Positions 32,899 through 46,856 of a stretch of 46,856 nucleotides of DNA are shown here, in pieces (the first letter of the stretch is position 1; each line of letters opens with the position of its first letter). The stretch covers positions 1-46,856 of the forward strand of contig JBFFMO010000001.1 of NCBI GenBank assembly GCA_041554035.1, in the 5' to 3' direction. The stretch comes from Microvenator sp. GTDB taxonomy: Bacteria; Myxococcota_A; Bradymonadia; Bradymonadales; Bradymonadaceae. The translations under genes and the position numbers were made by a program. The notes beneath the pieces were generated by a model. The model was not told where the DNA came from, ran no database searches, and worked only from the letters and a program-made list of their open reading frames with translations.

Positions 32899-34221
32899 TC
32901 ATTCTGTCTCATTTTTGCTATCCTTCCGTAATACAAGCCCCTTGGAAACGACCATTTCGGGGTGCTTGATCAAGTATCTCCTGACCGTCTTCTCTGCTAC
33001 CCCCATCGTCTCCGCAAGGTCTTCCGTGGTCACTGCTGGCCCTTCCGAGAGGCATGCTTTGTACGCCTCGCTCAGTGCCTCGTTCTGTTCCTTTTGGCGT
33101 TCCTTGACGCTCTTCTTCGGCTTAGCATTCTTCTGCCACGGAGCCTCTTCGCCCTCCGCCTTGGCATCCTTCAGAAGCGAATATCGGTCATCGGAGTGGA
33201 TGGGGTAGCGGAAGAATATCGACTTCGGCGGCATGGTTGGGAACTCGCGCAGAGTGGTCTCCACGCGCCAGCCTGACGCCAGTGTCGCCGCTTCCCGGAT
33301 GATGGGCCGATATTGCCTGACAGCGTCCGCAAGGCCATTCATCTCCGCCCAGGCTATAAGGTCGCGAGAAACGACCGTGTTGTCCTGTGGGCAGGTGTCG
33401 CGCCAATTTGGGCTAACGTGGTCGAAGGCATTGCTCAGTCCGTGGCATTCCCACGAGTTGACAATCTGGTATCGGCGGGCATCGTCGATGTTGAGTTCGA
33501 TCAGGTCCACGATGGCGTCGGGGTCGCGGGAGAACACGCCAGAGCCAGAGGAGCGGTCTCGACTGCTCTTTTGCCCCTGCGTACCTTTCGAATGGTGGTG
33601 GCAGTAGATGGTCGCTGCCCCGAGTTCCTTGCAAATCCGGTCGAATTGATTGCAGAACTTCGCCATCTGCTCCGCGCTGTTCTCGTCACCGGTCAGGACT
33701 TTGTATATGGGGTCAATGACCACGGCGGCATAACGCTTTTGCAGGGCTCTGCGGATGAGTTTAGGCGCGAGCCTGTCCATGCTGGTCGCATTGCCCCGGA
33801 GATTCCACACGTCCAACATGCCGGGGGTTCGCTTTATTCGCAGGGCCTCGTATATCTTCCAGAATCGGTGCCGACAGGATCGCTCGTCGAGTTCGAGGTT
33901 GACATACAGGACGCGGCCCTGCTTGACCGGCCACCCGAGCCACGTCCCGCCTTCCGCAAGGGCTACGCACAACTGCATAAGGGCAAATGATTTCCCGGCC
34001 TTGCTTGGCCCGGATAGTAGCATCTTGTGCCCTTCGCGGAGTAGGCCGTCAATCAGGCACGGCGCCAGTTCTGGCTCTTTTTCGTCGATGCTCAACTCTT
34101 CGATGTCCGGGAGATCGTCGTTCAGGTCTTCAACCCAATCATGCCATTCTTTCCAGGATGACTTGCCAACGTTGGTGCCGATCAGGTATTGCCGGTTGCC
34201 CCCCCGTACGATGCCAGGCAT
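32899..34221 (-). CDS. RepA/DnaB-like replicative ATPase (AAA_25-like) with C-terminal HTH (440 aa)
   Basis: Walker A LLSGPSKAGKSF, Walker B AAVVIDPIYK, RecA-like core. C-terminal TTEDLAETMGVAEKTVRRYL HTH. Confidence 0.7.
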   Translation of the reverse strand: MPGIVRGGNRQYLIGTNVGKSSWKEWHDWVEDLNDDLPDIEELSIDEKEPELAPCLIDGLLREGHKMLLSGPSKAGKSFALMQLCVALAEGGTWLGWPVKQGRVLYVNLELDERSCRHRFWKIYEALRIKRTPGMLDVWNLRGNATSMDRLAPKLIRRALQKRYAAVVIDPIYKVLTGDENSAEQMAKFCNQFDRICKELGAATIYCHHHSKGTQGQKSSRDRSSGSGVFSRDPDAIVDLIELNIDDARRYQIVNSWECHGLSNAFDHVSPNWRDTCPQDNTVVSRDLIAWAEMNGLADAVRQYRPIIREAATLASGWRVETTLREFPTMPPKSIFFRYPIHSDDRYSLLKDAKAEGEEAPWQKNAKPKKSVKERQKEQNEALSEAYKACLSEGPAVTTEDLAETMGVAEKTVRRYLIKHPEMVVSKGLVLRKDSKNETE

Positions 34222-34272: not shown

Positions 34273-35121
34273 TCAGGTGCAAACGTCCCACAGAAAATCA
34301 ACGCGCTTTCGGTACTCCTCGATTGTATCCGCGTCAATTTTGACGATTGCGTGGATTGATTTTCCACCGGAGTGCACGATTGCAGCGCACGGCAGTTCCA
34401 GTTCGCGGATAATGGCGTACTGCTTCGGCATTGGAATTTCGTCACTTTCGACCAAGGCATATCGGTGAGAAGTGACGTTATCGTCGCGGACTCCGGTGCC
34501 GTTCATGGGATTGAATCTGATCCATGCACCAGCCTTGGGATCGGCATCGCCAATCACGCGCCCCACATTTCCGCCACATTTGCCAAGTTGCTCGATAAGT
34601 TGCCCGGCTGTCCGGTCATAGGCACCCATTCCCTTTGGAAGGTATTTGCCTTTTGCTTCATTTAGCCAGGATTCAACGTTGTACGAAACTTTTTCATCTG
34701 ATTGAAATAGCGTTGACAGGTAAGACATGAGGTCTTTAACCGGGTTCCAACTCGGGCCAGGGTCGGGGATTTCGGAATCTTGCAACCAATCGGCGTCAAT
34801 GATGCGGAGGTCTTTGCCGGACACACACACATCCTCATTCCATCCAAGCGAACGGCCTTCTTCTCTGGGCGGCTTCCATCCTTGGGCCATTGCCATCTTT
34901 GCCAGTGATGCCACGGTGATTGGCTGCGCCGATCCGTGGAAGGATTGCCATTTCTGGTGGCAATCTCCCTCCCGGTATCTGGCCGGGTCGCGTCGGCTCC
35001 ATGCGTCCCACTGATCGGGGGATAGGCCTGCGTCCTTCAGCGCCATCCCGGCATAGAGCCACTCCTCGTACTGGAGTTGGCTTGGGTCTATGTGATTGAG
35101 CATTTCGAGTGCTTCAGACAT
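34273..35121 (-). CDS. Archaeo-eukaryotic-type primase-polymerase with N-terminal PriCT-2-like domain (282 aa)
   Basis: N-terminal W..AGMALKDAG...WDAWSRRDPARY....C..KW.SF (PriCT-2 pattern). YALVESDE (acidic motif) and HSGGKSIHA (sG-x-G-x-H AEP motif). Confidence 0.6.
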   Translation of the reverse strand: MSEALEMLNHIDPSQLQYEEWLYAGMALKDAGLSPDQWDAWSRRDPARYREGDCHQKWQSFHGSAQPITVASLAKMAMAQGWKPPREEGRSLGWNEDVCVSGKDLRIIDADWLQDSEIPDPGPSWNPVKDLMSYLSTLFQSDEKVSYNVESWLNEAKGKYLPKGMGAYDRTAGQLIEQLGKCGGNVGRVIGDADPKAGAWIRFNPMNGTGVRDDNVTSHRYALVESDEIPMPKQYAIIRELELPCAAIVHSGGKSIHAIVKIDADTIEEYRKRVDFLWDVCT

Positions 35122-35165
35122 CTGCGTTCCCTTCTTTTTTAAACATCGCGCACAGCAAAGGAAAG

Positions 35166-35552
35166 TTATGCCGGCGAGATGTTGTGTTTCTCGATATACT
35201 TCCTGACGGTAGACGGCGGCATTTCGAGCCCGACAGCCAGGTGTTCCACGTCATAGTCAAAGCGCGGGAGCCACTTGCGAATGAGGCGTACGGTCTCGGC
35301 CTCGTCGGCTTGCTGCTCGGCAGTCTTGCGAGAGCCACCACGGGCGAGAGCGTAACCAGCGGCCTTTGCCATCGTGGTCATGGTTCGCCGGGTGAGGCCG
35401 TGCCGTTGCGCGATTGTGGCCCGCTCCCCGATGGACTCGGCATAGGCTCGGATCGCATCGGCGGCTTGTTCGGCTGTGCGCCATGCTTTGGGCTGCCGGA
35501 ACGTTGCGTCTCCGATGTGGAGGGTTCCGTATTTGATTGATATTTTGTTCAT
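35166..35552 (-). CDS. HTH DNA-binding protein (128 aa)
   Basis: Two HTH-like segments (ATIAQRHGLTRRTMTTMAK; LAVGLEMPPSTVRKYIEKH). Confidence 0.6.
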   Translation of the reverse strand: MNKISIKYGTLHIGDATFRQPKAWRTAEQAADAIRAYAESIGERATIAQRHGLTRRTMTTMAKAAGYALARGGSRKTAEQQADEAETVRLIRKWLPRFDYDVEHLAVGLEMPPSTVRKYIEKHNISPA

Positions 35553-35579
35553 GCTTTTCTCCGCGTTCTTGATAGCCGA

Positions 35580-35936
35580 TCAGGATGTTTTTGCTTCCGG
35601 CATTGGTCGCCAACCGATCACGCGGCCAGGTGTCATTCGTGTTTGCGTGTTACGCAAAAAGCACCACCCTGTATCCTTTCGACGGTATCCCTCGCCTACT
35701 GTATTAGCCTCTCCGGGGCCATATCCAATTAGAAGCAAAAGAGGTTCCATCATAGGAGCATCATCGTCCCTCCACCGTGTTTCCTCTCGCAGCGCGGCTA
35801 TTTCACACCACGCGGTCTGCGCCTCATGTCTAGATTGATAATCTCCACTCTCCGCTCCACATATAACGCAGTTACAATACCATTTCCCTGGCCGTCTTCT
35901 GACAGCCTCAACGTGTTCTTCTCCACAAAAAAACAT
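35580..35936 (-). CDS. Lar-like zinc-ribbon plus DUF551-like protein (118 aa)
   Basis: CNCVICG...EAQTAW (Lar-like) and C-terminal GRVIGWRPMPE (DUF551-like W-x-P-x-P ending). Confidence 0.55.
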   Translation of the reverse strand: MFFCGEEHVEAVRRRPGKWYCNCVICGAESGDYQSRHEAQTAWCEIAALREETRWRDDDAPMMEPLLLLIGYGPGEANTVGEGYRRKDTGWCFLRNTQTRMTPGRVIGWRPMPEAKTS

Positions 35937-35974
35937 TTCATCGCTTCACTCCTCCACCTTCGTTCGATGCGCCG

Positions 35975-35991
35975 CCTGACTACATATCAGG
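35975..35991. repeat. CCTGA-N7-TCAGG intergenic inverted repeat (copy 1)
   Basis: CCTGActacataTCAGG. TCA is the TGA stop of the upstream gene. 38 nt before the next start codon. Confidence 0.8.
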
Positions 35992-36436
35992 TGCGTTTGA
36001 TCCGTGGTCTAAAGTGGGTTACATCCTCAACACACTTCCATTCTTCATCCAGTGGGCACCATGTTTTCCACCCAGCGGTAAGGAAATATGTTTCGTACTC
36101 CTCGTCGTATTCAAACACTTCACCGCCACCGTACTTGATATCGTTTTCCGCTTCAGAATAATCCCCCGATTCGTAGAACGGATCATATGTCTTTTCCGGA
36201 ATAAAAAGTGCGGGCATCACGCGCCAGTCGTTTCTGTCGATCTTGACCATGTATTCCGGTCCACCAATGTCGCAGTATTCTTCTGGTTGTTCTTTTTCCA
36301 CGTCGCGCCAGCGCGACTGCTCACGCAACATATCCAGTTCTTTTTGCAGCGTTTTATAATCGCAATCTACCTGAAGAAGCCTATCGTATTCTGTTTGGTT
36401 AATAGCAATCATTTTGGGTGGGTATGTAAAAGTCAT
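35987..36436 (-). CDS. DUF551-like protein (149 aa)
   Basis: ATG 36436 (MTFTYPP) with AGGAA RBS. RWRDVEKEQPEE and VTHFRP motifs. Confidence 0.55.
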   Translation of the reverse strand: MTFTYPPKMIAINQTEYDRLLQVDCDYKTLQKELDMLREQSRWRDVEKEQPEEYCDIGGPEYMVKIDRNDWRVMPALFIPEKTYDPFYESGDYSEAENDIKYGGGEVFEYDEEYETYFLTAGWKTWCPLDEEWKCVEDVTHFRPRIKRT

Positions 36437-36456
36437 GTTCCTATATTTCCTGTGTC

Positions 36457-36473
36457 CCTGATGTGTAATCAGG
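36457..36473. repeat. CCTGA-N7-TCAGG intergenic inverted repeat (copy 2)
   Basis: CCTGAtgtgtaaTCAGG. Contains the upstream stop. 20 nt before the next start. Confidence 0.8.
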
Positions 36474-36753
36474 TGTTGGGTTTTTCCAACCGTGGCTGGC
36501 CACATTTGCAAAACTCAGCGTCTTCTCCGCACCAACATCCTCTTCCAAATGTGCCTGGTGTAGGTAGTTCTTCGTCGTGCAAATCTGCTTTCAGCATTGC
36601 GGCATAGCACTCTGGGTGCATTCTCGCGGTAACAGACTCTCCATAGCAAAACCAGGAAGAATAGGGTTGTCCTGTGTCTATGTTCTCCCAGCACCAATCA
36701 CAAGGGTAGTTCTTCCTTGATTTTTTTATATGTCGGGTTTCGCTTACGCTCAT
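36469..36753 (-). CDS. Cys-rich small protein (94 aa)
   Basis: Ten Cys residues (CDWC, C..C..C clusters). GGAGGAA RBS. Confidence 0.6.
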   Translation of the reverse strand: MSVSETRHIKKSRKNYPCDWCWENIDTGQPYSSWFCYGESVTARMHPECYAAMLKADLHDEELPTPGTFGRGCWCGEDAEFCKCGQPRLEKPNT

Positions 36754-36771
36754 TTATTCCTCCTTGGCGTT

Positions 36772-36788
36772 CCTGATTCTTCATCAGG
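36772..36788. repeat. CCTGA-N7-TCAGG intergenic inverted repeat (copy 3)
   Basis: CCTGAttcttcaTCAGG. 18 nt before the start at 36753. Confidence 0.8.
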
Positions 36789-36910
36789 TGGTAGTTTCCT
36801 TAAAAAAATCCTGGGCCCCAACGCATCTTCTTTAAAATCAAACGTTTGTAAAAGTGCTAACAGTTTATAGTTTTACTTGGGCCCAACTTCCCAACATGAG
36901 CGCCTGATAA

Positions 36911-37144
36911 TCAGTCAAGCGGTGTAAACGTTGCCAAGCAGCGGCGTATCTCCATGTGCTGGCCGGGTAACCATTTTCCGGTTGTGCCTTTGCATGAGCG
37001 TGGTTTGCCTTGCAACAAAAGCCCCCTAACCCATTCATCATCAAAGGATTTCACCTGAAAAACGAACCGCCCTTTTCGACAATGCCAGACGCTATAGACA
37101 GCCCCCACCACCACGCTCTCAACAGGTTGTTTCGTTGTAGCCAT
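36911..37144 (-). CDS. Hypothetical protein (77 aa)
   Basis: ATG 37144 (MATTKQP) with AAAGGAA RBS. The ORF-track start at 37255 overlaps the upstream gene. Confidence 0.5.
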   Translation of the reverse strand: MATTKQPVESVVVGAVYSVWHCRKGRFVFQVKSFDDEWVRGLLLQGKPRSCKGTTGKWLPGQHMEIRRCLATFTPLD

Positions 37145-37188
37145 TTTTGCATTCCTTTCTGCCGGGTGTCCGAATTCTTGACAATCGA

Positions 37189-37428
37189 TCAAGTATTCAC
37201 TTTGCTTTCCAGCAAGGTGGTATATTTTGCTTGTAGCAGTAATATTTGATCCCATACCTTCTGATGCTCATTCTCTACAACCTGAAGATGTGTTGATGAT
37301 AAACCCTCTTCATGTATTGCCCTTGCTGCTCTCTTCGCTGCTATCAGGCTACTGTTTGCTTGACACATTATTTGAATGAAACCCATCTCGTTTAGATCTT
37401 TTGCTTTTGGCTGCGTTTCCAGCATCAT
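37189..37428 (-). CDS. Hypothetical helical protein (79 aa)
   Basis: AAGGAG RBS. Confidence 0.55.
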   Translation of the reverse strand: MMLETQPKAKDLNEMGFIQIMCQANSSLIAAKRAARAIHEEGLSSTHLQVVENEHQKVWDQILLLQAKYTTLLESKVNT

Positions 37429-37449
37429 ATATCTCTCCTTCCATGGCTT

Positions 37450-37466
37450 CCTGACTGTTGATCAGG
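37450..37466. repeat. CCTGA-N7-TCAGG intergenic inverted repeat (copy 4)
   Basis: CCTGActgttgaTCAGG. 21 nt before the start at 37428. Confidence 0.8.
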
Positions 37467-37471
37467 GCTGT

Positions 37472-37714
37472 TTAAAATTTCCATATCGCCCGGCTACCTC
37501 CGGAACTTTTCACGATCTTTGAGAAAAGTTCCCCTCCCATAGCCTTTGATAATATCTGGTTGTCTAACCGGAATGGATCTGTATTATTCAGCATGAAGCA
37601 TATGCGTTTGGCTCCGCTCAATAACCAAAGGCCATCGCGACACTCAGGCTTCTCTTTGTCGGAGACCACCGTTACAGCCCGTCCGTGCTTTCTGGAGTCT
37701 TTCACAATAATCAT
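37472..37714 (-). CDS. Hypothetical protein (80 aa)
   Basis: ATG 37714 (MIIVKDS) with GAGAGGA RBS. Confidence 0.55.
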   Translation of the reverse strand: MIIVKDSRKHGRAVTVVSDKEKPECRDGLWLLSGAKRICFMLNNTDPFRLDNQILSKAMGGELFSKIVKSSGGSRAIWKF

Positions 37715-37731
37715 TTTTAAATCCTCTCGCG

Positions 37732-37748
37732 CCTGACAGTCCATCAGG
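37732..37748. repeat. CCTGA-N7-TCAGG intergenic inverted repeat (copy 5)
   Basis: GCGCCTGAcagtccaTCAGGCG (extended stem). Contains the upstream stop. 17 nt before the next start. Confidence 0.8.
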
Positions 37749-37929
37749 CGTTCACTTCTTTGTAGAAATCGGCCTCATCCCATTCTGGGCAAGTATCCTG
37801 TGGCTCTATGTGGTGCGTGTATTTCTTTGAAGACTCGTTGCCGCAGCGTCCTATTTGCTTGTTCCCAACAAAATCAAGTTTAGGCCATTGGCAAAAAAGG
37901 CAGTGCGGTGGAAGTGGTGGCTTTCCCAT
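37744..37929 (-). CDS. Cys-rich small protein (61 aa)
   Basis: CLFC...C...C Cys clusters. AAGGGGGA RBS. Confidence 0.55.
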   Translation of the reverse strand: MGKPPLPPHCLFCQWPKLDFVGNKQIGRCGNESSKKYTHHIEPQDTCPEWDEADFYKEVNA

Positions 37930-37949
37930 TGTTTCCCCCTTTCAGCCAT

Positions 37950-37966
37950 CCTGATACATAGTCAGG
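37950..37966. repeat. CCTGA-N7-TCAGG intergenic inverted repeat (copy 6)
   Basis: CCTGAtacatagTCAGG. 20 nt before the start at 37929. Confidence 0.8.
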
Positions 37967-37971
37967 CCCGC

Positions 37972-38379
37972 TCACTTCCGAATTTTGTACATCGCAGCCA
38001 AACACTTTTTCGCCAGCCGGTCCTGTGCCTCCGTGAAAAACAACTGGTCAACGCCAGCCGCGTTTTTCGTAATCTTCACTATGTCGATGTCCTGCAACGC
38101 AGCACATCCGTACCCGTCGAAAGTGATGGTCACTCGGTGGGCGAGTACCGAACTCCTGAAACCTTCCGGCCAGGAGGGAGTAGAGACAACCCACGCGCCC
38201 GCCCAACCTGCCTTCGTGTCGCCGAGCAACTGACACAGGCTGCGTTTTGCGTCTGTGATTATTTCAACCAGGTCGGGCATACGCTCAAAGCAGCAATCCA
38301 GATCGTAGGACATGATTGTCTCTTGCAGGATTTCGTCGATTTCTAATTCGTTCGCCCTGTTTATTGCGATGGTTTTCAT
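37972..38379 (-). CDS. Hypothetical protein (135 aa)
   Basis: ATG 38379 (MKTIAINR) overlaps the upstream stop by ATGA. Confidence 0.55.
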   Translation of the reverse strand: MKTIAINRANELEIDEILQETIMSYDLDCCFERMPDLVEIITDAKRSLCQLLGDTKAGWAGAWVVSTPSWPEGFRSSVLAHRVTITFDGYGCAALQDIDIVKITKNAAGVDQLFFTEAQDRLAKKCLAAMYKIRK

Positions 38380-38702
38380 TGGCATTGTTCGAGTTCCTCC
38401 ATTGTTATCCACCCGCCAACAGACAGCACAGGAAGGCCGTTACTAATCGCAAGGGCAATCTCTGCGCGTGCGCCAAGACTATTTTTAAACCCACTTAAAA
38501 CAGCGACCCCATCGGAAGCGCGAACCATTGCGAGATCAATATCGAGATACTGCGCCCGCGTCAGTCCGTCCGGGTTTTTTGCCGGATTCAGTACCACATA
38601 GCCAGCAGCCTGAAGTTCTTTCTCTGCCTCAAAAAACGCTGGGCGGTTGTGATCCGGAAGGCCCGCCATCGGGCCGGAAATGTAAAGCACCTTCTCGTTC
38701 AT
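38376..38702 (-). CDS. DUF4406 / nucleoside 2-deoxyribosyltransferase-like protein (108 aa)
   Basis: VLYISGPMAGLPDHNRPAFFEAEKELQAAGYVVLNP matches the recalled DUF4406 N-terminal pattern. Confidence 0.55.
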   Translation of the reverse strand: MNEKVLYISGPMAGLPDHNRPAFFEAEKELQAAGYVVLNPAKNPDGLTRAQYLDIDLAMVRASDGVAVLSGFKNSLGARAEIALAISNGLPVLSVGGWITMEELEQCQ

Positions 38703-38717
38703 TTTATTTTTCTCCGT

Positions 38718-40304
38718 TTATCGTGTTGGTTGGTATTCTTTGGCGTTGACCCCGTGCGGCGGTCTCCAGTTGTTCGCGGCAATGCGCGAGATCATGTTGT
38801 TCGCCCCTTCAAAAGTCCACGCCCCGACGTGCTGAAAATTCATTTTTTCTAGCAGCCTGATTTGCTTGGCTGTAGCAAGGCCACTGTCCCTGCGCTTTTC
38901 TATGCTCTTGATGATCAACTCCGCTTCGCCCGCGCTTTTGATTTCGTCCGGGAATATTCCCGCGCCTTCCAGCGACTTTTTCTGCTGGTCAGTCGGTGCG
39001 GCTTGCTCCCACCCGAACGCTGGCTCATAGTTGGTCAAGTCCTGCGACTGGATCGACATTGCGTATTGCAGCGGGTCCACAAGATTGCGCTTGCGCTTCT
39101 TCATCTTCTCCAGTTGTTTAGCCAGGGCCTCTTCACGCTCGGCCACGCAATCGCTTTCGCCTTGCACCATCTCCTCTTCAAGATCAACCGCACAACCGGC
39201 CTCAGCAATGTTCTCGGTCATCTTAGCCGCGACCTCTTCGGAGTCGGCTATCAGGTGCGCCGGTCGGCTCAACTCGTGGCGATCCGTGTGCCACAAGAAA
39301 TCGAGCAGCAGCAAGTGAGTCTTTCCCGTTTCAGGAGAAAGGCGCGTCCCTCGTCCAATCATCTGGCAGTAGAGGCTCCGCACCTTCGTCGGTCGCAGCG
39401 GGATAACGCAATCAACTGCGGGGGAGTCCCACCCCTCGGTGAGTAGCATCGAGTTGCAAAGCACGTTGTATCGCCCGGCCTCAAAGTCGGCCAGAATCTC
39501 CGCGCGATCCTTGCTTTCGCCGTTCACCTCGGCGGCCCGAAAGCCCTTCGCGTTCAGGAAATCGCGCATCTTCTGGCTGGTCGCCACGAGAGGCAAGAAC
39601 ACCACTGTTTTACGATCAGCGCAGTAGTGCGTCATTTCGTCGGCGATCCGTTCGAGATAGGGATCGAGGGCGCTGCCGAGTTCGCCGACCTTGAAGTCGC
39701 CAGAAACGCCGACCCCTGAAATGTCGAGTCTCAGGGGGATAGTTTGCGCTCTGATAGGTGTAAGAAATCCGTCCTTGATAGCCTGGGGCAATGAATAGGA
39801 GTAAGCCAGACTCTCGAAGAAAATCCCAAGTTCGCGCATGTCGCCGCGATCAGGTGTCGCGGTGACGCCAAGCACGTCGGCTCCGCTGAAATGCTCAAAG
39901 ACTTTCTGGTATGAGTTCGCCAGGCAGTGGTGCGCCTCGTCGACGATAATCACGTCGTAAAAGTCCGGTGGAAACTGGCGGAGCCGTTTCTTGCGCATGA
40001 GTGTCTGAACAGAACCGACCGTCACGCGATACCATTCGCCAAGCGCGGACAACTCTGCTTTTTCAACAGCGCAACCAAGCCCCGTTGACTTCTGTAGTTT
40101 GTCGGCTGCCTGGTCGAGCAACTCGCCACGGTGCGCCATTATGAGGCAACGCTTCCCCCGCCGGACAAGTTCTTCGACGAGTTTGCAGAACACAATCGTT
40201 TTGCCCGTCCCGGTGGGTAGCACCAGCAATGTGCGCTGGATGCCTTTATCCCACTCGTTCAGGATGGCGTCTTTGGCTTCTTGTTGGTATGGTCTGAGTT
40301 GCAT
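38718..40304 (-). CDS. Superfamily-2 DEAD/DEAH-box helicase (528 aa)
   Basis: LRPYQ, motif I LPTGTGKT, motif II VDEAHH, motif III TATP, motif VI QMIGRGTR. Confidence 0.85.
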   Translation of the reverse strand: MQLRPYQQEAKDAILNEWDKGIQRTLLVLPTGTGKTIVFCKLVEELVRRGKRCLIMAHRGELLDQAADKLQKSTGLGCAVEKAELSALGEWYRVTVGSVQTLMRKKRLRQFPPDFYDVIIVDEAHHCLANSYQKVFEHFSGADVLGVTATPDRGDMRELGIFFESLAYSYSLPQAIKDGFLTPIRAQTIPLRLDISGVGVSGDFKVGELGSALDPYLERIADEMTHYCADRKTVVFLPLVATSQKMRDFLNAKGFRAAEVNGESKDRAEILADFEAGRYNVLCNSMLLTEGWDSPAVDCVIPLRPTKVRSLYCQMIGRGTRLSPETGKTHLLLLDFLWHTDRHELSRPAHLIADSEEVAAKMTENIAEAGCAVDLEEEMVQGESDCVAEREEALAKQLEKMKKRKRNLVDPLQYAMSIQSQDLTNYEPAFGWEQAAPTDQQKKSLEGAGIFPDEIKSAGEAELIIKSIEKRRDSGLATAKQIRLLEKMNFQHVGAWTFEGANNMISRIAANNWRPPHGVNAKEYQPTR

Positions 40305-44295: not shown

Positions 44296-44373
44296 TTACA
44301 TACGTTTTAGGTCAATCATGGCCCCTACTGCGAAAAATATGCATGCGGCTATTAGCCAGAGTTGCGTTGTCAT
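44296..44373 (-). CDS. Candidate 25-aa hydrophobic micropeptide
   Basis: MTTQLWLIAACIFFAVGAMIDLKRM. The ATG overlaps the stop of the upstream gene (ATGA). Below the ORF-track size cut-off. Confidence 0.3.
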   Translation of the reverse strand: MTTQLWLIAACIFFAVGAMIDLKRM

Positions 44374-44810
44374 AGCCCCGCCCTTCGGTACAGTTCCGAG
44401 ACCGTGATCCCGAGCGCGTTAGCCAGTGCGGTGATATGCTCGCGGTTCAGTGGCTTCTCGCCCCGAATCAGTTTGTAGTAGTACGACTCGCCGATCCCGA
44501 TCAGACTGGCCAGTTGGGCCTTGGTTCTGATCCCTGCCTCAATGCGCAGTTTGTCGATCACGTCGAACAGGAAGAAATTCTGGCGCAGCACGTCCGGGGT
44601 TGTGCCGTCTATCTTCTTGGCTTTCTTTTTGGTCGGCTTCTCGGAGTCTTTCCACCCTGCGCACAGTGCCTCAACTGAGCAATGCGGCCCCACCAGCCGC
44701 CCGCACTCGCACTGTAGGACAAGGTGGTCATTGACCTTGTGCAGCGTCGCGGTTGTCGCGCCGCAGGTGCAGGGGTCGAGGTTCTCGTTTACTCCTGGCT
44801 TGATGTTCAT
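44370..44810 (-). CDS. Lar-like zinc ribbon fused to an XRE-type HTH (146 aa)
   Basis: N-terminal CTCG...CECG...ALCAGW. C-terminal TKAQLASLIGIGESYYYKLIRGEKPLNREHITALANALG HTH. Confidence 0.6.
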   Translation of the reverse strand: MNIKPGVNENLDPCTCGATTATLHKVNDHLVLQCECGRLVGPHCSVEALCAGWKDSEKPTKKKAKKIDGTTPDVLRQNFFLFDVIDKLRIEAGIRTKAQLASLIGIGESYYYKLIRGEKPLNREHITALANALGITVSELYRRAGL

Positions 44811-45978: not shown

Positions 45979-46188
45979 CTACCCTTTCGCAGTCTTCCGC
46001 CTGATCGCCCGGCGGGTTGGTTTCGTTTTCTGGAATGCCGCTCTCACACCTTGTCGGACAAGGTCGGCCAGCGCATGCGCATTCTCAAACGCAATTCCGT
46101 CCGGGAACTTGATCACGGGGTATCCGCCGACACACGGGTCAGGCATTACGATCTCAACTCTTCCGGTGAATGGGACGTATCCAGCCAT
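45979..46188 (-). CDS. Hypothetical protein (69 aa)
   Basis: ATG 46188 overlaps the upstream TGA (TGATG). The ORF-track GTG at 46191 is an alternative start. Confidence 0.5.
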   Translation of the reverse strand: MAGYVPFTGRVEIVMPDPCVGGYPVIKFPDGIAFENAHALADLVRQGVRAAFQKTKPTRRAIRRKTAKG

Positions 46189-46379
46189 CACAAAACCCCC
46201 CTGTGCGTCTTCGCGTTAATATAGTTCTCAAGGTCGTTCAACTTGACGCGCCTTTTCCTTGCTGAGAGAATGACCACCGGGAACGCGCCCGCCCGGATCA
46301 GCGAGCGCACCACGCCCTCGGAACATCGCAGTTCCTTGGCGGTATCTCTGATGGTGAGTAGTTGGGCTCTCGGTGTCAT
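46188..46379 (-). CDS. Excisionase/AlpA-like HTH_17 DNA-binding protein (63 aa)
   Basis: LLTIRDTAKELRCSEGVVRSLIRAGAFPVV...VKLNDLENYI. GGGAGAGGGA RBS before ATG 46379. Confidence 0.55.
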   Translation of the reverse strand: MTPRAQLLTIRDTAKELRCSEGVVRSLIRAGAFPVVILSARKRRVKLNDLENYINAKTHRGVL

Positions 46380-46425: not shown

Positions 46426-46683
46426 TCACACGCCAACAATGTCGGTGTGGTCTTTGCTTTTCATGCCCAACGCTCTTGCGGCCTGTGCCATATCTCGCAA
46501 AGTCCATTTGGTTTCACCCTTCAACAATCGCGTGACGCGGCCTTTTTCCCAACCGGCGCGGCGCGCGAACTCTGTTTGCGTCCACTTGCGCTTGGCTATT
46601 TGTTGTCCAATGAAACGGTTGTAGCGCACTTCTTCGGGCAACAGTTGTTTGCTTTTCGTCACTTTTCGTTCTCCGTTAGTCAT
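46426..46683 (-). CDS. Cro-like HTH regulator, first gene of the early (lytic) operon (85 aa)
   Basis: WTQTEFARRAGWEKGRVTRLLKGE HTH. Divergent from the 134..373 gene across the operator region. Confidence 0.75.
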   Translation of the reverse strand: MTNGERKVTKSKQLLPEEVRYNRFIGQQIAKRKWTQTEFARRAGWEKGRVTRLLKGETKWTLRDMAQAARALGMKSKDHTDIVGV

Positions 46684-46715
46684 TTGTTGTTCTCCGTCAA
46701 TCCTGTTAAAGATAG

Positions 46716-46856
46716 TAATGGTAAATTAGATATAATGCAACAAAATTCTATTGCAAATAATGCAATCAAATTTTTCTTGTATTCTATTGCGTTTAGGGGA
46801 TATAGTGATTTTAGAGTTGTAAATATTGCAACAGGGGGTAATGCGAAAATGTCGAA
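46716..46856. repeat. Exact 141-bp terminal redundancy (copy 2)
   Basis: Identical to 1-141. Ends with the first 8 nt (ATGTCGAA) of the 134..373 CDS. Confidence 0.9.

Follow-up and report, generated by a model that had tools for sequence, protein, structure and literature searches.

The 46,856-nt stretch of contig JBFFMO010000001.1 analysed here (positions 1 to 46,856, hereafter the window) carries the genome of a temperate phage in which a 17-bp inverted repeat, CCTGA-N7-TCAGG, recurs at the gene junctions of a single 2.4-kb block of small genes. The nine copies (E1 to E9, Table 1) form an element family that is real, strongly non-random and internally well defined, and the evidence supports a selected, sequence-specific cis element. 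The function tentatively favoured for this array is that of dyad operators for one dimeric regulator, placed at every junction of an acquired gene block whose transcription they would block or tune.

The exact motif has 6 matches in the window against 0.03 expected, a count reached by none of 100 dinucleotide shuffles, and when spacer lengths of 0-12 are scanned, no 5-bp arm except CCTGA forms a palindrome six times. A two-mismatch search around it adds three members in the same block and nothing convincing elsewhere in the window. The whole family is covered by the relaxed consensus CYTGAY-N5-RTCARG (Y, pyrimidine; R, purine), with 9 matches against 0.05 expected, all 9 within 35568-37966; outside these limits the exact, mismatch and relaxed-consensus searches found no copy in the window. 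An earlier note on this DNA had listed six exact copies (35975, 36457, 36772, 37450, 37732 and 37950), confined to a block of about 2.4 kb, each 17-38 nt before the next ATG and three of them supplying the preceding stop codon from the TGA of an arm. All of these observations hold, and the pattern search against shuffled sequence that it had called for bears out the enrichment. Its degenerate copy at 35568-35584 fits the relaxed consensus and is counted as E9. The compressed variant that it placed at 36904-36914 does mark a copy, but one better read as the 17-mer CCTGA-TAATCAG-TCAAG at 36903-36919. The six copies and two variants all belong to the family, from which a ninth member (CTTGA-CAATCGA-TCAAG, 37177-37193) had been missed; with 37177 and 35568 added, the overlap with stop codons extends to 5 of the 9 copies. 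The junction placement described in the note also stands, with the strand corrected: the block genes lie on the minus strand.

Table 1. Coordinates in the window of the nine elements, of the genes and gap that they border, and of other phage genes (SD, Shine-Dalgarno; HTH, helix-turn-helix).
Feature	Position	Strand	Sequence	Context
E1	37950..37966		CCTGA-TACATAG-TCAGG	exact; 5 nt past g146 stop; 20 nt before g61 ATG
E2	37732..37748		CCTGA-CAGTCCA-TCAGG	exact; arm TGA (minus strand) is g61 stop; 17 nt before g80 ATG
E3	37450..37466		CCTGA-CTGTTGA-TCAGG	exact; 5 nt past g80 stop (TAA); 21 nt before g79 ATG
E4	37177..37193		CTTGA-CAATCGA-TCAAG	transition in both arms, dyad kept; arm TGA is g79 stop; 32 nt before g77 ATG
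E5	36903..36919		CCTGA-TAATCAG-TCAAG	one variant half-site, G.U in mRNA sense; g77 stop within spacer
E6	36772..36788		CCTGA-TTCTTCA-TCAGG	exact; downstream end of 114-nt gap; 18 nt before g94 ATG
E7	36457..36473		CCTGA-TGTGTAA-TCAGG	exact; arm TGA is g94 stop; 20 nt before g149 ATG
E8	35975..35991		CCTGA-CTACATA-TCAGG	exact; arm TGA is g149 stop; 38 nt before g118 ATG 35936 (33 nt before alternative ATG 35941)
E9	35568..35584		CTTGA-TAGCCGA-TCAGG	one variant half-site, C.A mismatch in mRNA sense; arm TGA is g118 stop; 15 nt before g128 ATG
g146	37972-38412	minus		last gene before first element; orphan; probable start ATG 38385
g61	37744-37929	minus		elements on both sides; SD-like sequence
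g80	37472-37714	minus		elements on both sides; SD-like sequence
g79	37189-37428	minus		elements on both sides; SD-like sequence
g77	36911-37144	minus		elements on both sides; SD-like sequence
non-coding gap	36789..36902	minus		114 nt, between E5 and E6
g94	36469-36753	minus		elements on both sides; SD-like sequence
g149	35987-36436	minus		elements on both sides; SD-like sequence
g118	35580-35936	minus		elements on both sides; SD-like sequence
g128	35166-35552	minus		first gene after last element; orphan
tyrosine integrase	1442-2581	plus
Xre-type HTH genes	134-373; 46426-46683	plus; minus		divergent across genome ends
excisionase-like gene	46188-46379	minus
SNF2-type helicase	38718-40304	minus
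DUF4406 protein	38376-38702	minus
split primase/helicase	34273-35121 and 32899-34221	minus

Between the end of g146 and the start of g128 no gene junction is without a copy. Non-coding sequence accounts for 17.5% of the block, and nine randomly placed sites would all land at junctions with a probability of ~4e-8; in the rest of the genome ~6% of the sequence is non-coding and hairpins at junctions are few, with none of the CCTGA family. In five copies the TGA of the 5' arm doubles as the upstream stop codon (g61, g79, g94, g149, g118); the stop lies in the spacer in one (g77) and 5 nt upstream of the element in two (g146, g80). The eight copies that directly precede genes are followed by the next ATG after 15-38 nt, while the copy at 36903 precedes the 114-nt non-coding interval 36789-36902, which carries an element at each end. 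A sequence resembling a Shine-Dalgarno (SD) site is present between element and ATG, ~3 to 20 nt from the element. Because the element-to-ATG distance varies over 15-38 nt, the element has no fixed relation to the ribosome site. Intervals between elements range from 114 to 465 bp and are protein-coding with SD sequences, the 114-nt gap excepted.

Some copies share more than the consensus. The elements flanking g94 (36454-36482 and 36769-36797) have extra flank similarity over 29 nt (72%; p ~0.03), and the outermost exact copies (35974-35991 and 37950-37967) have the spacer hexamer TACATA in common and are 89% complementary over 18 nt (p ~0.03). These likenesses, each only marginally improbable, may be traces of copy spread. 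In E2 the flanks lengthen the dyad (GCGCCTGA...TCAGGCG).

The element is conserved at the level of sequence and not of structure. In an ungapped alignment of the nine copies conservation is limited to the arms, the flanks and the central five bases being free. Of the five arm pairs only one (positions 2/16) varies; in the mRNA sense it reads C-G in six copies, U-A in one, U.G in one and C.A in one. Departures from the consensus concern 4 of the 18 half-sites and are all the same transition, CCTGA to CTTGA. All nine copies have a pyrimidine at position 6 and a purine at position 12, independently of any pairing between the two (in the mRNA sense U.G four times, U-A three times, C.A twice and C-G never). 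The spacer is always 7 nt long and free in sequence. Covariation between the arms is not above that of shuffles (121/500). That arms and spacing are kept while spacers and flanks are randomised points to selection on sequence and geometry, which argues for recognition by a trans-acting factor rather than for selection merely of a stem. With the pyrimidine and purine positions included, the site consists of two 6-bp half-sites CYTGAY whose centres are 11 bp apart, about one helical turn. Half-sites one turn apart are the classical layout for a helix-turn-helix (HTH) dimer bound to one face of B-DNA.

This geometry suggests that one dimeric sequence-specific protein might read the nine dyads on double-stranded DNA in the manner of an HTH dimer. 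A single regulator could then occupy the whole block and block or throttle transcription through it, the array serving as roadblock or silencer; its working principle would be that of the conserved inverted repeats (CIRs) of phage phiC31 and of the stoperators of phage L5. The regulator could be encoded by the phage, with g128 as the nearest candidate, or by the host. We infer four elements of this proposal: a protein dimer as ligand, action at the DNA level, repression as outcome and g128 as binder.

The gene g128 lies directly downstream of E9, the last and weakest copy. A single-sequence AlphaFold model of its product is confident only in the C-terminal 45 residues (residues 80-125; predicted local distance difference test, pLDDT, 82-90), which are modelled as a long helix followed by a helix-turn-helix. 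Foldseek matches this part locally to the dimeric DNA-binding domains of NtrC4, NtrC1 and Fis (template modelling score ~0.65 on the target, probability up to 0.99, E 0.68), and Pfam gives a sub-threshold match only, HTH_23 at E 0.09. The g128 protein is thus a candidate cognate binding protein, a lead rather than a finding.

Several points weigh against operators as the function. The binder is a candidate whose model comes from a single sequence and whose fold matches are local (E ~0.7). No copy of the element was found in or near a recognisable promoter or in the immunity switch, so that the usual link between operator and promoter is missing. One roadblock would suffice to stop an operon, and nine need a further reason. 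Each element lies against or across the upstream stop codon (-9 to +5 nt) and the slack gathers on the SD side, a polarity that is not required of a pure DNA site. The relatives found, at 21-63% identity, offer no copies of the element in which its conservation could be tested. Finally, when folded in a 137-nt context, eight of the nine elements are predicted to form hairpins in the mRNA sense (P = 0.69-0.99).

The last point is one argument for the main alternative, possible but rather doubtful, in which the elements are intercistronic mRNA hairpins (5-6 bp stem, 5-7 nt loop) that come directly behind each stop codon and precede the next start by 15-38 nt. The stem would be read by a sequence-specific RNA-binding protein or endoribonuclease, or the hairpins would be stability or processing determinants that uncouple the cistrons. 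The antisense strand yields 6-7 of nine hairpins in the same context. The stem could gain a sixth pair, U-A or U.G, in 7/9 copies in the mRNA sense against 5/9 in the antisense, and E5 keeps its pairing through a G.U in the mRNA sense only. The position of every element on or beside an upstream stop codon agrees with this explanation, as does the long 157-nt interval between g77 and g94, where the 3' end of g77 has a copy of its own and a second copy precedes g94 by 18 nt. There is also a precedent in the HTH proteins Aca1 and Aca2, which bind a hairpin of the 5' untranslated region (UTR) ending ~20 nt before the start codon (PMC13551039).

Other features of the sequence do not favour mRNA hairpins. 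Natural flanks promote folding over shuffled ones, with summed hairpin probabilities of 7.1 against 5.0 and 6.6 against 4.9 on the two strands (p ~0.03 each), but the gain is the same on the non-transcribed strand; having no strand asymmetry, it reflects a few extended palindromes and not a strand-specific signal. The conservation of the arms is one of sequence and not just of complementarity, with no significant covariation, and the loop, although usually the main determinant of RNA recognition, is free. E9, with its C.A mismatch, is not predicted to fold in the mRNA (P = 0.02). Stem energies with 4-nt flanks extend from -1.4 to -12.8 kcal/mol (-4.3 to -12.8 when the non-folding E9 is left out); the stems are weak, too short for RNase III and devoid of U-tracts. 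With SD sequences ~3 to 20 nt away, uniform SD occlusion is impossible. Rfam has 0 matches at the gathering threshold in the window and 0 even at E <= 1 in 35400-38100. The earlier note had proposed either a DNA site for a dimeric protein or an RNA hairpin. What the two have in common, a sequence-specific cis element, stands; the evidence leans to the DNA site and, with eight of nine hairpins predicted, the RNA option is retained.

It is also conceivable, though unlikely, that both apply: the block would be an accessory, possibly anti-defence, island in which an orphan HTH protein (candidate g128) reads the dyad before every cistron as duplex DNA and again as a hairpin in the mRNA.

Known classes of elements with stems or repeats were compared with the array. 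An intrinsic terminator is rejected: within 34500-39500 a terminator scan found nothing on the minus strand, where the elements are also without a following T-run; a scan for promoter-like sites on the minus strand at the elements likewise found none. ARAGORN detected no transfer RNA (tRNA) in the window. The 5-bp stem and 7-nt loop are those of a tRNA anticodon arm, in which CCUGA/UCAGG is a common stem, but anticodon mimicry is rejected because the loops lack U33 and R37: loop position 2 is U in 3/9 copies only and position 6 a purine in 3/9 only. An integron cassette array is discarded as well, the 17-bp element being without extended conservation whereas attC sites span 57-141 bp with R''/L''-L'/R' boxes; the sole integrase belongs to the lysogeny module and is not an integron integrase adjoining the block. 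Repetitive extragenic palindromic (REP) sequences and miniature inverted-repeat transposable elements (MITEs) do not match an element with only 10-12 conserved bases and no extension beyond the stem. Arrays of clustered regularly interspaced short palindromic repeats (CRISPR) have 23-47-bp repeats with short non-coding spacers, versus the mostly coding intervals of 114-465 bp observed here.

A very unlikely explanation takes the elements for the boundaries of cassettes, at which accessory genes would be exchanged through short recombination or linker sequences, comparable to the promoter-early stem-loop elements (PeSLs) of T4-type phages or to integron attC sites. Each gene of a hypervariable, low-GC block of orphans is indeed bounded by a copy. 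The g94 gene, conserved exactly between its two elements, ends in a non-conserved C-terminal tail that runs into the arm; its flanking copies share the extra flank similarity described above (29 nt, 72%), and the outermost exact copies their TACATA hexamer. The phage also has a Sak4-type recombination module. Ten conserved bases are nevertheless too few for homologous or site-specific recombination, and the differences among all spacers would block exchange by a tyrosine recombinase. No recombinase gene adjoins the block; on the circular map the integrase is ~12 kb distant and on the opposite strand. Homologues of g94 occur in other phages without the element, the scans of IMG/VR and GTDB found no other genome with it, and promoter and terminator are missing, unlike in PeSLs (PMC2839356). 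That the array is made of non-functional relics of a tandem junction duplication, or is a chance cluster, is hardly credible: a few copy pairs do share slight extra flank or spacer similarity, but enrichment is >100-fold with 0/100 shuffles reaching it, arms and spacer length are intact amid randomised spacers and flanks, which implies purifying selection, and the bounded genes are unrelated, with no direct repeat longer than the element.

Relatives of the phage were sought through its primase, helicase and TerL in IMG/VR, GTDB genomes and metagenomes, and showed 21-63% identity only; the phage stands as a singleton lineage. None of these relatives carries the element, a homologue of a block gene or an analogous recurring junction palindrome. 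The homology of g94 with its relatives begins at residue 1 and ends at a CxC motif, beyond which the tail is not conserved. Contigs with g94 homologues (L180-L188) have tightly packed genes without the element. The element therefore belongs to the regulatory scaffold of this phage and not to g94. Pattern scans of IMG/VR and GTDB for element pairs 240-270 nt apart found no other genome with the element. As CCTGA/TCAGG is a frequent tRNA anticodon stem, scans of these collections are dominated by arrays of tRNA genes. The multi-copy matches were tRNA anticodon arms (including L023, L031, L034, L020, L027 and many GTDB loci), coding tandem repeats (L028, L102, L169, L177) and CRISPR-like or other repeats (L016, L017, L118, L148); one more, in L008, is a coding coincidence beside a distant helicase homologue. 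A literature search on the element sequence itself was uninformative.

Other repeats were noticed in these collections. Two unrelated viral contigs (L016, 1000-10221; L017, 2155-2700) have repeat families of their own, GAT-CCTGAA-N5-TTCAGG-ATGAC(A), with conserved flanks. In the relatives L038 (11322-11435) and L041 (11322-11392) the helicase gene is directly followed by 3-4 copies of AAAAG-N6-CTTTT, possible origin iterons without a counterpart in the window. Three related metagenomic loci (L048, L056, L061; ~16.2-19.4 kb) carry three copies of TGCCG-N5-CGGCA at matching positions, which may be terminators or another repeated site.

The nine proteins encoded in and beside the block have no significant match in Pfam, NCBIfam or PADLOC, and PHROGs gives marginal matches only, for g61, g94 and g128 (E 0.002-0.006 overall, 0.002-0.005 for the two within the block). 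No relatives of g149, g146 and g128 were found in libraries of 5.8 and 1.8 billion proteins, and g94 is the sole block gene with homologues (six, 56-69% identity). The bounded genes are mutually unrelated and no direct repeat longer than the element links them. The region that bears the elements coincides with a GC trough, of 42-48% against 55-60% on both sides. With orphan genes in such a trough, the block looks like a horizontally acquired accessory island.

Two regions of the block have further features. In the gap 36789-36902 two GGGCCC-centred palindromes (TTGGGCCCAA, TTGGGGCCCAGG) enclose an AT-rich stretch and have a T7 run after them on the minus strand; a weak -35/-10 candidate was recognised by eye only. 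It could be an unusual long-loop terminator, a pair of regulator sites or an origin-like region. The start of g118 is ambiguous (35931-35945): the spacing to the SD favours ATG 35941, whose frame has 47 aa, while ATG 35936 opens a 118-aa frame. The two candidate codons are separated by a T7 homopolymer (ATGAAATGTTTTTTTGTGG), and a sequencing frameshift or slippage is possible there.

An exact 141-bp direct repeat at the window ends (1-141 = 46716-46856) shows that the window is a complete circular or terminally redundant phage genome of 46,715 bp. Transcription runs over a long distance on the minus strand through genes for an SbcC-like ATPase, a Sak4-like protein, the SNF2-type helicase and the DUF4406 protein, then through the element block and on to the primase/helicase, TerS, TerL and virion genes. 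Besides the Xre-type genes, HTH proteins are encoded on the minus strand at 44370-44810 and by the excisionase-like gene at 46188-46379. The two primase ORFs match PHROG family 2597, 34273-35121 covering profile positions 7-283 and 32899-34221 positions 303-745, with ~50 nt between them; the same split is present in metagenomic relatives, where the gap is ~57 nt. The nearest described phages (blastn, INPHARED) have Flavonifractor, Faecalibacterium, Paenibacillus and Streptococcus as hosts, and the match is limited to helicase and primase at ~65% nucleotide identity.

Four 11-mers similar to TAATGCAAC lie in the switch region between the Xre-type genes (46684-46856), together with an inverted repeat of 14 nt and the palindrome ATTGCA-N5-TGCAAT. 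It is probably these repeats that serve as the true immunity operators; they bear no relation to the CCTGA element, of which no copy is found in this region or near either Xre-type gene. As the switch bears a different repeat, the CCTGA element is not the immunity operator.

If the elements are operators or roadblocks, they would represent a compact way to put an acquired gene block under one switch, in a Clostridia-type gut phage lineage. To our knowledge, multi-site systems of this kind have not been described in Clostridia-type gut phages, the known cases being actinophages. If instead the elements act as hairpins, they would be a rare sequence-specific RNA signal for each cistron of a phage operon. 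Reading of the dyad as both DNA and RNA would extend the DNA/RNA control exerted by Aca1 and Aca2 from a single promoter/5' UTR to a per-gene array, with which the phage could shut off an entire acquired module one gene at a time. The accessory island is delimited exactly by the element, and the nine natural variants of a 17-bp site, including single and double half-site variants, offer a clean experimental handle.

The closest known arrangement is that of the CIRs, which are reportedly the repressor operators of Streptomyces phage phiC31, in work attributed to Ingham et al. 1994 and Wilson et al. 1995. CIRs are 17-bp inverted repeats with many copies in short intergenic regions across the early region, mostly away from promoters, and include an operator at the repressor gene's own promoter that serves autoregulation. 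The present array resembles them in the 17-bp inverted repeat, the multiple intergenic copies, the co-directional genes of an early/replication region and the temperate nature of the phage. It differs in being restricted to one acquired 2.4-kb block with no copy at the switch, and in an unrelated sequence and a different host phylum. The copy at the repressor promoter that CIRs include is absent near both Xre-type genes, which places the array outside that family.

The stoperators of cluster A phages (L5, TipsytheTRex) are 13-bp, asymmetric and orientation-dependent sites, ~26 of them genome-wide in addition to the operator of the early lytic promoter; each is bound by a monomeric protein that carries two DNA-binding domains, and the bound repressor stops elongation by RNA polymerase (PMC9283540). 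Many copies of one short site at intergenic junctions inside operons are common to both systems. The sites of the present phage are 17-bp and dyad-symmetric, the nine copies lie in one block and none is at the switch. The array has neither the 13-bp asymmetric site nor the genome-wide and promoter distribution of cluster A stoperators, and the term stoperator-like used in the earlier note is apt as an analogy only.

Cluster K phages have start-associated sequences (SAS), 13-bp and asymmetric, which contain the SD sequence and lie 3-7 bp from the start codon, and extended start-associated sequences (ESAS), inverted repeats with 17-bp arms and a variable 4-13 bp spacer for which RNA pairing is unsupported (PMC3203893). 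Their function is not established (PMC3203893). Like the CCTGA element, they are repeated motifs confined to the non-structural half of the genome, close in front of start codons, in some cases across the preceding stop codon, and they accompany gene families that are unrelated. The present element has 5-6 bp arms and a constant 7-nt spacer and lies 15-38 nt before the ATG, separate from the SD sequence. Arm length, spacer and SD linkage thus set it apart from SAS/ESAS, of which ESAS are the nearest unexplained parallel.

Aca1 and Aca2 are anti-CRISPR-associated HTH regulators in which one dimer reads an inverted repeat as DNA or as an RNA stem (PMC13551039). The organisation is similar in that the operon has an HTH gene, here the candidate g128, behind its small accessory genes and that the inverted repeat ends ~20 nt before the start. 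Aca sites, in contrast, are found at the operon promoter/5' UTR in one or two copies and not before each cistron. On the side of the present phage, the HTH of g128 is modelled, with only HTH_23 at E 0.09 in Pfam, the scan found no promoter, and the block genes are not known anti-CRISPR (Acr) proteins. The PeSLs of T4-type phages are cassettes of a strong sigma-70 promoter and a terminator stem-loop, long enough to recombine (PMC2839356). They share with the CCTGA element a location, as repeated short intergenic elements, between small ORFan genes of a hyperplastic region. Here, however, only 10-12 bases are conserved and no promoter- or terminator-like site is present at any element on the minus strand, which separates the array from the PeSLs. 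The array is best classed as a variant of the theme of multi-copy intergenic operators in temperate phages, outside the CIR and stoperator families.

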